Source: a virus (taxonomy: Duplodnaviria; Heunggongvirae; Uroviricota; Caudoviricetes). From it: a stretch of 11,394 nucleotides of DNA. Below are positions 1,236-9,929 of this stretch, in pieces. Every line of letters starts with the position of its first letter. Position 1 is the first letter of the stretch. Both the position numbers and the translations under genes were made by a program. The stretch lies in IMG/VR virus record IMGVR_UViG_2663763232_000009; one strand, 5' to 3'. The notes under the pieces were generated by a model, which searched no databases, was not told the DNA's origin, and saw nothing but the letters and a program-made list of their open reading frames with translations.

Positions 1236-1802
1236 ATGACACCACGACAATTACTCGAAGACGTCAAATCCCGCTTCACACCTTTGATTGCGGATGAACC
1301 TGCCTTACTGGAATCCCTGCTAAGAAAAGCATTGGGAACCTACCAGGATAGAGCGGGGCACATCAAGCGGATACGCTTCACTGATCAGGCCAGTAAATCA
1401 CTTGCTTGCCCTGCTGATTTTCTTGCGCTCGTATCGGTTACAGATCACACCGGCGATCTTGTCTACTCCGACGTTTACGATGGGAATATCGAGCTTGAAG
1501 ATACCCATCGAGCGGTATACCCACTGAATGTGTCATATCTGGCTAATTTGCGTGATATGGATCTGGATAATGGAGAAGTGCCACCTGAAATCATTGGGTT
1601 ACTTTCTGACTATCTGGAAGTGCTAATCGCGATACCTAACACTGATCGCCTGCGAAGAATATCTATCGCGGGGAAACTCGATGCCAGCAATTTATCCGAC
1701 GAGAACACGCTGTATCAGCGGAAGCTGGATCTGGAAGAGAAAATGAGCGCAACAAGGGCAATTATCCCGGGAATTGTTCTTTTCTCATCCATGTTGAAGT
1801 GA
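1236..1802 (+). CDS. Phage morphogenesis protein of unknown function (188 aa), first gene of the tail operon
   Basis: ORF with ATG start and a GAGG RBS 4 nt upstream. Its stop lies 10 nt before the tube-like gene. Acidic, no recognisable motif. Function is inferred from position only. Confidence 0.65.
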
Positions 1803-1812
1803 GGGGGCTGAT

Positions 1813-2424
1813 ATGGGGCTTAATGTTGCTTCAGTAAAGTCTTATGTATCTTCGGCATTAACGACGACATTATTTGGCTCCGGCGTTGGTGAGCGGGAAG
1901 TTGGTAAGCTGACGTCAATCATCATGAACAAAATGCTCTTCGCGCAAGGATGGCAGTTCTCTGTCGAAGTTGATGGACTGGAGGGAGCAGACTTCTTTGC
2001 CAAAGATATTACCTACCACGATTACAGCATCGAATATGAAACGATTAAAATCGGCGGAGGGAATATCCTTCAACCAACGGAGCGTTCGCCAGGGCAGATA
2101 ACAATGATGGTCAGGGATACCGTTGATGGCCTCGTTTTGGACTGGTTTAAGACGGCAAAAAGTCGGGTGATTAATCCAGACGGTACCGGGAATATACCGT
2201 CTAAATATTTGCTCAATGTGCGTATTTATCGGTTGCTGTCTTCCGGCTTAACCAAACTGGAAAATGAGATGACTGTATTCCCGGTCACTACCGGCGATGT
2301 CACCTATGCGCGGGATCAGGTTACGGAATTTAAGTCATTCCCAATGACCTTCGCATTGCACAGCACGTTTAACCAATCCTCAAGTTCTTTGGCTTCCCTT
2401 CTGGGCTTTAGTTTTTCTCTTTGA
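1813..2424 (+). CDS. tub: Tail tube protein of a contractile tail (T4 gp19 / P2 FII / Pvc1-like family candidate)
   Basis: ATG start with a strong GAGGGGG RBS (1800-1806). The protein contains a WQFSVEVDGLEG ... YHDYSIEYETIKIGGG segment resembling the conserved N-terminal strand motif of contractile-system tube proteins (F-x-V-x-I/V-D-G ... I-E-Y ... G-G). It sits just before the chaperone-position gene and the tape measure. The symbol tub is offered on the assumption that the cluster is P1-like; it is not verified. Confidence 0.6.
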   Translation: MGLNVASVKSYVSSALTTTLFGSGVGEREVGKLTSIIMNKMLFAQGWQFSVEVDGLEGADFFAKDITYHDYSIEYETIKIGGGNILQPTERSPGQITMMVRDTVDGLVLDWFKTAKSRVINPDGTGNIPSKYLLNVRIYRLLSSGLTKLENEMTVFPVTTGDVTYARDQVTEFKSFPMTFALHSTFNQSSSSLASLLGFSFSL

Positions 2425-2438
2425 ATTAAGGAGCAAGG

Positions 2439-3320
2439 ATGCTTTTACCCCTTTTCCCGCTACCATCGCGGCCAACTGAATTGATCCAGTTCCGTCAGCC
2501 AAATATTGCTGATGCGATGCGTTTCAACTCGATAACACCGGAGGAACAAGAACAACAGACAACGGCGTATTTAAAAGCCTTGCTGGCTGAACCCGCGAAA
2601 CATGATCCCCTGACATGGACGGCGCAGGACCGGATTACCGCGTTATGGTGGATATTTACCGGCTCCCGTGAAACACCGGTCGAGACATTCACTTACACCT
2701 GTAAACATTGCGGTAAAGAGCATTATTACGATTGCGATATGAATGCTCTGGCTGAAGATATCCAGGTCCTGGAAGTGGAACCTTTCATTGACGATATTGA
2801 GGTGTCTGTAGAGGGAGTACCTTATCAATGGCGTATCGTGCCGCTTGATGGTTGGGCAATGGAAATGCTGGAGATGCGCCGTGCAGCATTGCCACCTGAA
2901 GACGACGCGGAATTCAAAGAAGCGATCGTTGATTTGCGTTTTTGGGAATTCGCTTATCAGTGTGAGCTTTATAACGATGTTAGCGGTACTCGTGAAGATC
3001 AGGCTGAGCGTCGTTATGAAACGATTAAACGGATGGCCATTGATACTGAATTTATGAAGCTGGCGGCACACATCCGATTGGCTCATGAAAAGCTCGAACA
3101 TGGTTTACCGTGCTACATCGATAAAGGTGAAATGCGTCTTCGTCTCCCGCCTCATAAATGCCCAAATCAGGATAAAAAGGAGTCCACAGAGGGTGCGTAT
3201 ACCCGTCTGTGGGTGCCCTTTCGGGCTACCGACTTCATTCCACAGGTGGGGATTGAAAAGCTATCAGACCTTAGTGTCCAACCTGGTTTTGTATGGGGGT
3301 ATACCGATTCAGGACGCTGA
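2439..3320 (+). CDS. Acidic Cys-rich protein (293 aa) at the tail-assembly-chaperone position upstream of the tape measure gene; possible C-terminal extension to 3390 by frameshift or indel
   Basis: ATG with a consensus AAGGAG RBS (2428-2433). The protein is D/E-rich with Cys clusters (CKHCGKEHYYDCD; C...HKC) that suggest a zinc-binding site. The reading frame ends at TGA 3318-3320, but the next frame continues as protein-like sequence (IPIQDAERLTESYAFFLLEKLEEKLKPKR) to 3390. The two frames can be joined at a G5 run (3295-3299). Confidence 0.7.
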   Translation: MLLPLFPLPSRPTELIQFRQPNIADAMRFNSITPEEQEQQTTAYLKALLAEPAKHDPLTWTAQDRITALWWIFTGSRETPVETFTYTCKHCGKEHYYDCDMNALAEDIQVLEVEPFIDDIEVSVEGVPYQWRIVPLDGWAMEMLEMRRAALPPEDDAEFKEAIVDLRFWEFAYQCELYNDVSGTREDQAERRYETIKRMAIDTEFMKLAAHIRLAHEKLEHGLPCYIDKGEMRLRLPPHKCPNQDKKESTEGAYTRLWVPFRATDFIPQVGIEKLSDLSVQPGFVWGYTDSGR

Positions 3321-3401
3321 AAGGCTTACTGAATCCTATGCGTTTTTCCTGTTGGAGAAACTGGAAGAAAAACTTAAACCGAAACGGTAGGCGATAAGAT
3401 C

Positions 3402-8580: not shown

Positions 8581-9416
8581 TGCAGCGTTCCTGGTTTAAT
8601 AACCGGCTTACATCAGCTAAGCAAAAGTCATTGCTCTATAAATCATTGGCTGATTTGGTTCAGTCAATGATGGACACCTTTGTTGACCCATGGTTGGAGC
8701 GAATTACCAACCGGAAGTCTATTTTCTCTATGAGCAAGGAGGATCTGGAGACCAGGACAAATGAACTTGGCCAGTTCTTTACTATCAGAACGTCGAACTC
8801 ATCTTCTGTTCCGATGTTGTTACAACAGCGTCTTGATGAGATTCACTTTAAGGGGACTGAACGCCCTATAAACCAGACAATTTACCGCGAATTTAACGGT
8901 ATTTCTGTTTTATGGGATCCGATATATGCACCGGTGGACCTTGAGCGTCATCCCTATGGCACAGTTCTAATACCAGAAAGCACACTGGAGACTACCGGCG
9001 GCACATTCGGCGAGATGTTTCTGACTTCCAGAGGGATGATCAGTATTCCCATAAACGACCTGGCCAGGACAATGGGTATTACTGGCACGATAGATCAGTC
9101 CGCAATTACAGAAGAAATTCTCAGAAAGTTTAATCAGTTCGTAAAGCCTCTACTGCCACTGCATATAGTGTTTGATGGGCTTACGCTCTATTTGTCGGTT
9201 GTTGTAAATGAACATGCCGACATGATCACTTTGAACGAGATTTCTGATACCGAAAAAGCATTCTGCTGGTTTGAAACTTCGGATACAACTTCGCTTACTG
9301 GAGTTACGTCGATTAGCGCCCCGATCACCGCAACGCCTGGTGGCACTATTGTGAAAGCGACACCTACGTTTGATCGCACACGCGCAGATGATTTGTTGCT
9401 GGATAGCGACGCCTGA
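8580..9416 (+). CDS. Baseplate / tail-fibre attachment protein (278 aa; GpI-like candidate by position)
   Basis: ATG 8580 overlaps the upstream TGA (GTGATG), with a strong GGAGGAG RBS at 8568-8574. GTG 8577 is an alternative start. Function is inferred from position between the baseplate-type gene and the fibre genes. Confidence 0.45.
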   Translation: MQRSWFNNRLTSAKQKSLLYKSLADLVQSMMDTFVDPWLERITNRKSIFSMSKEDLETRTNELGQFFTIRTSNSSSVPMLLQQRLDEIHFKGTERPINQTIYREFNGISVLWDPIYAPVDLERHPYGTVLIPESTLETTGGTFGEMFLTSRGMISIPINDLARTMGITGTIDQSAITEEILRKFNQFVKPLLPLHIVFDGLTLYLSVVVNEHADMITLNEISDTEKAFCWFETSDTTSLTGVTSISAPITATPGGTIVKATPTFDRTRADDLLLDSDA

Positions 9417-9419
9417 CAA

Positions 9420-9444
9420 TCACCCCGTCCGCAGGGCGGGGTGA
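9420..9444 (+). promoter_or_regulatory. GC-rich hairpin (TCACCCCGTCC / GGGCGGGGTGA, 3-nt loop) just after the 279-aa gene; candidate attenuator, terminator or RNA-processing site before the fibre genes
   Basis: Read directly: an 11-bp stem with one G-T wobble, starting 4 nt after the TGA at 9414-9416. It is followed by the pyrimidine-rich TTACTTCTCTT, not a clean U-tract. A second small inverted repeat, CAATG(N11)CATTG, lies at 9463-9483. Confidence 0.4.
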
Positions 9445-9494
9445 CAAGTTACTTCTCTTACAATGAGGCTTCACAACATTGATTAGGGAAAATC

Positions 9495-9929
9495 ATGTCT
9501 GACGTCTCAACAAACCTCTATAAGAGTCAGTTGTTGGACTATTACTATCAGCGGCGCGCTGAATCGTCCATTAACAAAGGCTCTCGATTTTTAATCAGCA
9601 AGGCCGTTTTCGGTACCAGTTCACTGGTTACTAAGAAAGGAGATGGCACTTATGAGATTGGAGAACTGCCAAAGGCTTTCGATCTGGCAGAACTGACCAG
9701 TCAATTTTGCACCATCAACCTCGTCCCAACCTACTCAGGCGGGATAATTACTGTCCGAATGGACCTTGATCAAAGCCAGTTGCAGGAAGGGAAAAACTAC
9801 CCATTCAACACTCTGGTTGTTCTGGATAACGAGAACAAGCCAATCGCCATTATTTGTGTCCAGGAAGACTCGCTGTATGTGGGCAAAACATATACCGCAG
9901 TTATGGCCATAAACACGACTACAGCATAA
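9495..9929 (+). CDS. Small tail-fibre-associated protein (144 aa) immediately upstream of the tail fibre gene
   Basis: ATG with an AGGGAA RBS. Its stop lies 11 nt before the fibre start. The position matches gene R of P1-type fibre operons (R-S-U), but no motif was recognised. Confidence 0.55.
   Translation: MSDVSTNLYKSQLLDYYYQRRAESSINKGSRFLISKAVFGTSSLVTKKGDGTYEIGELPKAFDLAELTSQFCTINLVPTYSGGIITVRMDLDQSQLQEGKNYPFNTLVVLDNENKPIAIICVQEDSLYVGKTYTAVMAINTTTA

Follow-up and report, generated by a model that had tools for sequence, protein, structure and literature searches.

The tail and baseplate gene block of phage P1 and a candidate +1 programmed frameshift in its pmgB gene

Introduction

Escherichia phage P1 has a contractile tail whose tube is built of BplB, not Tub, and whose sheath comprises 53 rings of gp22, as seen by cryo-electron microscopy (PMC10304247). 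Its baseplate is simple, with about 10 proteins, and the lysozyme activity that T4 carries on gp5 resides on the tape measure (PMC9024508). Counterparts in T4 include gp19/gp54 for the tube fold of Tub, gp25 for PmgA, gp6 for BplA, gp7 for gp16 and gp29 for the tape measure Sit; sequence similarity between the two sets is marginal. It is already known that the tail genes of P1 are organized in three clusters. Here we analyze an 11.4-kb stretch of viral DNA (11,394 nt; IMG/VR record IMGVR_UViG_2663763232_000009; hereafter the window), its source being seen over these bases only, in comparison with the P1 references AF234172.1/NC_005856.1 and OP279344.1. A preliminary description of this DNA had noted a contractile-tail gene set with no sheath gene beside it and had suggested, from the gene arrangement of P1, a P1-like phage or plasmid-prophage.

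In phages lambda and P2, the gene directly upstream of the tape measure encodes a tail-assembly chaperone pair, G/GT and E/E+E', respectively, in which a -1 shift at a heptameric slippery sequence (X XXY YYZ) gives access to an extension in an overlapping frame; the N-terminal part of such classical chaperones is roughly 100-140 aa long. The P1 gene in this position is pmgB, whose product is absent from virions and was guessed to be a tape-measure chaperone from position only; knockout of either pmgA or pmgB leaves no tails (PMC9024508). A different type of recoding occurs at UUU_Ynn, which is especially prone to +1 shifting in bacteria. Yersinia YopN-TyeA and influenza A PA-X (UCC_UUU_CGU) share the same tetranucleotide logic, in which tRNA-Phe moves from UUU to UUC before a slow CGN arginine codon (PMC5009743).

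Results

Positions 53-11314 of the window form one unbroken match to P1 at 97.5% identity (megablast against a phage collection), which corresponds to AF234172.1 36468-47759 on the minus strand and covers 99% of the window. The P1 annotation carries over gene by gene, with order and spacing equal to those in AF234172.1, and protein identity is 94-100% (tblastn with P1 proteins). The window reproduces the P1 late operons LPsit (pmgC-tub-pmgB-sit-pmgA-bplA-16) and LPs (R-S-U) in genes, order, spacing, late promoters and the recombination site cixR; it differs in carrying an IS1 in simB, a Sit without a 10-aa insert and with patchy divergence, and another variable tail-fibre segment (Sv) after cix. 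Mismatches to P1 are sparse except in Sit (3501-3750, 5501-6000 and 6251-6500), the spacer between 16 and R, and both window ends. As expected of a punavirus, nucleotide identity and synteny with P1 extend across the structural region. P7 and other punaviruses match from 1184 onward at 94.6-97.8% (megablast), a range that covers the tail and baseplate block of P7 (AF503408.1), RCS47, SJ46 and JL22. The sim region upstream of about 1184 diverges in these phages, and 53-1183 is matched by P1 and a few other phage records (for example vB_EcoM-673R5), not by P7. Rfam and tRNA scans of the window returned nothing.

The best plasmid match, at 100.0% identity over 1-11314, is to NZ_CP034659.1, which E. 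coli ATCC 98082 carries as a 454-kb plasmid of type IncHI1B/IncY/MOBH. Among 5426 complete E. coli genomes, 418 have at least 80% of the window, and the plasmids that carry it are typically about 90-100 kb in size. The preliminary description had named consistent best matches in a non-P1 lineage as the outcome that would overturn its proposal; every window protein has its best match in P1, and we found no evidence that contradicts the P1 assignment. The window is almost certainly the late tail and baseplate region of a P1 (Punavirus) genome or of a P1-derived plasmid segment. P1 identity, gene content, promoter conservation, the absence of a sheath gene from the window and synteny in relatives are observed directly.

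The interval singled out earlier, 1236-9929, has the pmgC start and the R stop as its exact bounds. Its tube-fold, tape-measure, gp25-like and further baseplate genes are borne out by tblastn with P1 proteins and by Pfam and PDB matches, as is the lack of a sheath open reading frame (ORF) beside the tube gene. P1 gp22 (sheath), BplB, PmgG and gp21 gave no tblastn hit in the window, and Pfam and PHROGs searches found no sheath domain in its proteins. In P1 (OP279344.1), cluster A (pmgC...U, 42013-29786) is the window block, cluster B (23-22-21-pmgG-bplB-pmgF, 54210-48511) includes the capsid gene 23, and cluster C (26-25-7-24-6-5, 74598-69964) holds hub, spike, terminator and stopper genes. Sheath gene 22 (50854-52443) is separated from tub (40825-41436) by 9.4 kb, so that the suggestion of a separate sheath operon was correct. 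Of a contractile tail module, the window has the tape measure, tube initiator and wedge proteins, and the sheath and major tube genes are in another cluster in P1.

The same partition is seen in NZ_CP034659.1, which carries repA-parA-parB-23-22-21-pmgG-bplB, with gp22 99.2% identical to that of P1 and repA, parA and parB at 100%. Both layouts, together with the absence from the window, place gene 22 in a separate cluster, as in punaviruses. A sheath gene immediately upstream of the AT-rich gene (simC) had been named as a further refuting outcome; none is found there in the window, where a truncated simB and the end of IS1 precede simC, or in P1 or NZ_CP034659.1. The "gp19-like tube protein" does have the tube fold, but it is not the major tube subunit, since Tub is the tube initiator (PMC10304247, PMC12810830). 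The true tube gene, bplB, belongs to the sheath cluster, two genes away from 22, so no tube gene is orphaned and the anomaly largely disappears. A coding sequence of 846 nt named "MarR family transcriptional regulator" in NZ_CP034659.1 sits, judged by position only, where P1 has repL.

We identify an unannotated, conserved extension of pmgB in the +1 frame. The frame-0 ORF (2439-3320, plus strand; 293 aa, 99.0% identical to P1 PmgB) encodes an essential, non-virion tail-morphogenesis protein with a T4 gp26-like fold. A +1-frame ORF of 101 codons (3085-3390) overlaps its 3' end and stops 11 nt before sit, and the conserved extension occupies the last 55 codons plus stop (3223-3390, plus strand). 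We compared the window with the loci L007, L008 and L009 and with 11 more from a genome scan (L013-L023), giving 15 divergent loci from about ten lineages: Escherichia, Salmonella, Pantoea, Chimaeribacter, a further enterobacterium, Xenorhabdus, Citrobacter, Serratia, Buttiauxella and Aeromonas. All 15 conserve the +1-frame peptide, including L007 (9772-9943), L008 (9775-9952) and L009 (9781-9952), with the pattern G-[ILV]-x-x-S-F-...-N-L-x-L-Y-G-x-Q-P-...-L-x-E-K-x-K over 52-58 codons. Frame 0 is conserved only up to ...P-F-R-x-x-x-F-[IFL]-P and then decays, with scattered stops, so that frame-0 proteins range from 268 to 297 aa, as against 310-318 aa for the hypothetical fused products. Likewise, the gap from pmgB to sit is 61-141 nt in frame 0 and -4 to +13 nt in the +1 frame, which in three lineages overlaps sit by a 4-nt stop/start.

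Evolution of the extension follows a coding-type pattern. Pairwise nucleotide differences by +1-frame codon position are 0.41/0.36/0.63, and 0.49/0.36/0.65 over extension columns 36 to the end, which were picked as lying past the frame-0 stops and not confirmed locus by locus. Amino acid identity of the extension (0.31-0.76) tracks that of the N-terminal part (0.35-0.73). The compared loci share no conserved start codon for independent initiation of the extension. A search of 5.8 billion proteins returned none covering more than 85% of the 316-aa trans-frame product; as no protein joins both parts in one frame, no lineage has fused them.

The junction between the frames coincides with a single invariant motif. 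An in-frame TTT CGG is present at every locus, and we propose TTT CGG G (3219-3225, plus strand) as the +1 slip site, its TTT and CGG being invariant in 10 of 10 lineages. Among 46 invariant residue columns with degenerate codons, only these two are codon-invariant and the other 44 vary synonymously; TTTCGG is also the only invariant hexamer in 111 nt. What pins the slip site is the bracket around it, formed upstream by a +1-frame stop two codons before the first +1 Gly codon (L014) and downstream by frame-0 stops 10-11 codons past the site (L008, L015). Within the window's genes this TTT_CGG is the only one; of the five other Phe-Arg pairs, four use TTC and the fifth (sit 4191) is TTT AGG, which is not UUU_Y.

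When viral_contigs was scanned for divergent pmgB, every locus found was 98-100% identical to P1; these loci serve as a population check and add no new lineages. Of 83 further P1-like loci, 81 keep the 293/261/55 pattern; in L103, which also has TTTCGG, the start was missed by the regular expression, and the sole variant is L102 (IMGVR_UViG_2778261541_000008), with TTT TGG at the site homologous to 3219-3224. Possibly a sequencing error, this change is synonymous in the +1 frame, replaces R by W in frame 0 and still leaves UUU_Y. We found no conserved RNA structure or stimulator flanking the proposed site; a Shine-Dalgarno-like GGGTG 3 nt before TTT is confined to the P1 clade and not conserved. 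A -2 shift and transcriptional slippage were considered and rejected, the 12-codon bracket containing no homopolymer run or re-pairing site. In FO818638.1 (L007 9001-9943), the gene range of the PmgB homologue spans 943 nt, to the +1-frame stop, with a product of 277 aa, which suggests that its annotators regarded the gene as frameshifted.

From these sequence comparisons we propose that pmgB is probably decoded with a conserved +1 programmed frameshift at CCC_UUU_CGG (3219-3224), giving two products that would be the P1 counterpart of the lambda G/GT or P2 E/E+E' chaperone pair. The predicted products, which we consider likely, are the annotated 293-aa PmgB and a 316-aa trans-frame protein consisting of residues 1-261 followed by GLPTSFHRWGLKSYQTLVSNLVLYGGIPIQDAERLTESYAFFLLEKLEEKLKPKR. 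CGG is a rare arginine codon in E. coli; while this codon awaits its tRNA in the A site, P-site tRNA-Phe would slip off UUU and re-pair with the overlapping UUC. This is the logic of YopN-TyeA and PA-X, although those act in other hosts and proteins and CCC_UUU_CGG in pmgB is a candidate site. The trans-frame protein would be distinguished by the predicted tryptic peptide LWVPFGLPTSFHR, the frame-0 counterpart of which is LWVPFR.

The position of pmgB, the requirement for it in tail formation and its absence from virions, taken with the +1-frame evidence, make the PmgB pair the likely equivalent of lambda G/GT. In all 15 loci the gene lies directly upstream of the tape measure and has an overlapping-frame extension. 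Unlike lambda G/GT and P2 E/E+E', however, the proposed shift is +1, not -1, and no canonical -1 slippery heptamer was found, the only invariant motif in the bracket being TTT CGG; the pmgB pair would hence be a variant of the family and not a typical member. Its N-terminal part, 261 aa and T4 gp26-like, also departs from the classical chaperones. PmgB scores 17.2 bits (E 0.004) against the T4 gp26-like Pfam family PF12322, below the gathering cut-off of 24.5. A PmgB model searched against BFVD gave 32 hits at E <=1e-3, with full-length similarity to the gp26 family; the best of these aligns over 278 columns (E 4e-9, TM 0.61/0.71), and "Baseplate hub assembly protein, bacteriophage T4-like" is the name given to several of them. 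The same model gave nothing significant against the PDB (Foldseek), and a PmgB family profile found nothing among PDB sequences. Single-sequence structure prediction of the trans-frame product yielded a predicted local distance difference test (pLDDT) of 38 and was discarded.

Tracing the divergent PmgB homologues to their contigs and comparing these with P1 proteins bears on how the tail genes of P1 came to be split. In Xenorhabdus bovienii (L007 2402-18943) and Aeromonas dhakensis (L008 2076-18807), at 30-54% protein identity to P1, the order 23-22-21-pmgG-bplB-pmgC-tub-pmgB-sit-pmgA-bplA-16-...-R-S is unbroken, and the bplB homologue ends 3 nt before pmgC in the former and overlaps it by 1 nt in the latter. 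A Salmonella relative (L009 1-16612; 51-84% identity) has a 4.3-kb insert at the exact bplB|pmgC junction, containing a YhaV/PrlF toxin-antitoxin pair, Ant, Icd and two further genes. The corresponding interval in P1 is 6.9 kb long and holds pmgF, rlfAB, repL-kilA, ant-icd-c4 and simABC. Because the junction occupied by this block in P1 is unbroken in distant relatives, parsimony makes the P1 split the derived state; most likely, a contiguous module is ancestral and was split by later insertion of an immunity and lytic-replicon block. The block (sim, c4-icd-ant, kilA-repL, rlfAB, pmgF) would have landed between bplB and pmgC, with LPsit then serving the downstream half, and such a secondary insertion would account for the dedicated late promoter before pmgC.

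The remaining tail and baseplate genes all lie on the plus strand, and their roles are taken from the literature. PmgC (1236-1802; 98.9% to P1 PmgC, with a match in PDB 9ums) is the head-to-tail adaptor, a 12-mer on the portal (PMC12810830), and pmgC knockouts leave heads and tails unjoined (PMC9024508). Tub (1813-2424; 99.5%; PDB 9ay5/9vzk) forms a single hexameric ring under the last BplB ring as tube initiator, and PmgG beneath it is the tube-hub linker (PMC12810830; bioRxiv 10.1101/2025.07.21.665459). The same two sources describe Sit as an unresolved tape measure within the tube, PmgA (6794-7150; 100%; PDB 9ay5_M) as the gp25-like wedge protein 1, gp16 (8580-9416; 99.3%; PDB 9ay5_a) as the gp7-like wedge protein 2, and BplA (7147-8580; 99.0%; Pfam Gp6-like_1st and Baseplate_J) as the gp6-like wedge protein 3, with two conformers per wedge. 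Tub, PmgA and gp16 are identical or nearly so to P1 baseplate chains (PDB 9ay5, 9vzk), and a role of gp16 in fibre attachment is probable. R (9495-9929; 98.6%; PHROG "tail fiber assembly") is a tail-fibre or baseplate-periphery protein for which we found no matching solved structure; a preprint proposes that it is gp8-like (bioRxiv 10.1101/2025.07.21.665459). PHROGs labels the remaining window proteins as P1-type tail proteins, and in a CRISPR interference (CRISPRi) screen every gene from pmgC to U was essential (PMC10695390). In the RefSeq plasmid records, one gene of the block is often named "bleomycin hydrolase", or in newer records "baseplate J/gp47 family protein", and most others are "hypothetical protein"; this annotation lags behind the solved structures.

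Sit (3402-6794; 95.5% to P1 Sit) is a tape measure with an SLT lytic transglycosylase domain at about nt 5643-5972 (Pfam SLT, E 2e-27). The window version fits the model end to end and lacks the 10-aa TLTRSPNGKL that P1 has inside this domain (a 30-nt gap at window 5737-5743, residue about 779), retaining the E-S catalytic motif and the motifs ATESGGN and GALGMFQF. The PHROG profile for Sit has 1130 positions, compared with 1140 aa in P1 Sit, and P1's 1140-aa Sit may be the atypical form. Patchy divergence of Sit amid neighbour genes that are about 99% identical suggests recombination within the tape-measure gene.

Upstream of the tail genes, the window opens with the last 58 nt of an IS1A copy (1-58, plus strand), a 100% match to the IS1 ends in NZ_CP034659.1 and shared with more than 5000 plasmid records. 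It interrupts simB, of which a 3' remnant is left (59-239, plus strand; P1 SimB residues about 43-105; tblastn 93.7% at 48-236); the IS1A transposase coding sequence of NZ_CP034659.1 ends at this same IS1/simB junction. In that plasmid the halves of simB flank an IS1A-corA-ysgD-IS1A block (L002 8671-12236 of the record), an arrangement that resembles a composite transposon with a chromosomal Mg/Co transporter gene as its cargo. The superimmunity gene simC, described earlier as an AT-rich gene (247-1026, plus strand; 99.6% to P1 SimC; GC 0.32-0.36), is dispensable like the other sim genes in the CRISPRi screen (PMC10695390). It is followed by a terminator-like hairpin (1059-1082, plus strand; a 9-bp stem, then a T-run), which we infer to separate simC from the late operon.

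Late promoters of the Lpa type, with a -22 box and a -10, precede both late operons, as in punaviruses. LPsit (1186-1204, plus strand) is identical to that of AF234172.1 at 19 of 19 positions, and Lpa-dependent transcription from it drives pmgC, tub, pmgB, sit, pmgA, bplA and 16. LPs (9446-9464, plus strand) matches P1 at 18 of 19, with the mismatch in the spacer and both boxes intact; this second promoter drives R and the tail-fibre gene S, whose 3' part lies in the Cin-invertible segment. Separately, the best sigma-70-like match in the window lies antisense within simC (613-584, minus strand; TTGAAT, an 18-nt spacer and TATAAT, with TG; 10/12), and promoter-like sites are fewer overall than in shuffled controls.

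The constant part of S (Sc; 9941-11301, plus strand) is about 95% identical to the P1 S N-terminus, with 95.4% over its N-terminal 474 residues (tblastn), a Pfam Phage_fiber_2 match and repeats a0, a1, b1 and b2 that differ by at most one mismatch each. The cixR site of the Cin-invertible C-segment (11292-11311; 18/20 relative to annotated P1 cixR) places the crossover at 11301/11302, and the switch to a non-P1 Sv (11302-11394, plus strand) occurs exactly there, so that a Cin/cix C-segment splits S as in punaviruses; cin itself is outside the window. Inversion of the C-segment was rejected as an origin of the last 80 nt, which match neither orientation in P1 or NZ_CP034659.1. The Sv, unlike either the P1 or the P7 orientation, shares 96.6% identity with a tail-fibre segment next to pinE (L005 9001-9087), within a Mu-like prophage carried by E. 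coli plasmids, and is found in only 2 of 72,556 plasmid records. It is an exchanged variable fibre tip.

Discussion

Our data assign the window to the tail and baseplate region of P1 and propose a +1 programmed frameshift in pmgB, and four points weigh against parts of this account. With 11.4 kb in view, any sheath gene, par/rep, cre-lox and c1 of the source would fall outside. The window begins within IS1 and closes with 80-93 nt of an Sv segment foreign to P1, so that the element departs from a textbook P1 and is possibly defective. Two outgroups and parsimony are the basis for the polarity of the proposed rearrangement. Finally, the need to encode F-R in one frame and F-G in the other (dual coding) would by itself force TTTCGG, and invariance of the motif shows that both frames are constrained there, not the slip site itself.

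That the block is instead an unusual non-P1 contractile-tail or tailocin-like module, truly without a sheath gene or having lost it, would be in keeping with the lack of a visible sheath ORF in the window. This is exceedingly improbable given 97.5% nucleotide identity and full synteny with P1, a P1 sheath gene 9.4 kb away, gp22 at 99.2% in NZ_CP034659.1, and the 418 complete E. coli genomes, out of 5426, that have at least 80% of the block, as a rule on a plasmid of about 90-100 kb. A different question, compatible with the P1 assignment and altering only the status of the element, is whether the window comes from a P1-derived segment that is embedded in a large cointegrate plasmid rearranged by IS elements and may not be able to produce phage; we give this slightly better than an even chance. 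The IS1 that interrupts simB at the window start and a junction 100% identical to the 454-kb NZ_CP034659.1 speak for it, as does the P1 backbone of that plasmid, which IS26, IS1 and ISSen4 have broken up and into which corA, a sucrose operon and tra genes are mixed. On the other hand, all tail genes in the window and both late promoters are intact, and the sim genes are non-essential (PMC10695390), so IS1 in simB need not inactivate the phage; the Sv differs from that of NZ_CP034659.1, and the source is therefore not the same molecule as that record. The nearest record suggests an IS-rearranged P1-derived segment in a large cointegrate, not a clean 94-kb P1 plasmid. Genes resembling gp25 and gp26 are present in NZ_CP034659.1 as well (L006 15368-16892), at no more than about 50% identity to their P1 counterparts, which hints at remnants of a second, divergent P1-like element in that plasmid.

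For pmgB, the alternative is that the +1 stretch is not reached by frameshifting and is either conserved as a side effect of something else or translated as a small gene in its own right, from a start that may be non-canonical. The sequence AGGTGGGGA, located before the TTG at 3253 in P1-type sequences, resembles a ribosome-binding site, and both the dual-coding constraint and the lack of a conserved RNA stimulator among our findings fit this alternative. A separate start, however, finds no place in L007 and L018, where the +1 frame contains neither ATG nor GTG nor TTG from the site to the conserved core; L008 and L015 offer a single GTG apiece, which lies at or close to the YG motif, past the majority of the conserved residues. 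The extension diverges in step with the N-terminal part (0.31-0.76 and 0.35-0.73 identity), fused lengths are tight (310-318 aa) where frame-0 lengths scatter (268-297 aa), and among 5.8 billion proteins no homologue joins both parts in one frame. We consequently regard the alternative as unlikely and favor frameshifting at TTT CGG.

The P1 assignment in itself changes nothing, its main use being annotation, in that the "tube" gene of this block is a tube initiator. The proposed pmgB frameshift is undescribed and so may be new. If true, it would fill the last gap in P1 tail assembly, the tape-measure chaperone, and would bring P1 under the near-universal rule of frameshifted chaperones, by way of an unusual +1 mechanism. 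It would also link T4 gp26-type "hub assembly" proteins to tape-measure chaperones, and all P1 and punavirus annotations would need correcting. A synonymous change of TTT CGG would then silently abolish an essential product, which would matter for the recoding or refactoring of P1 for transduction and delivery vectors.

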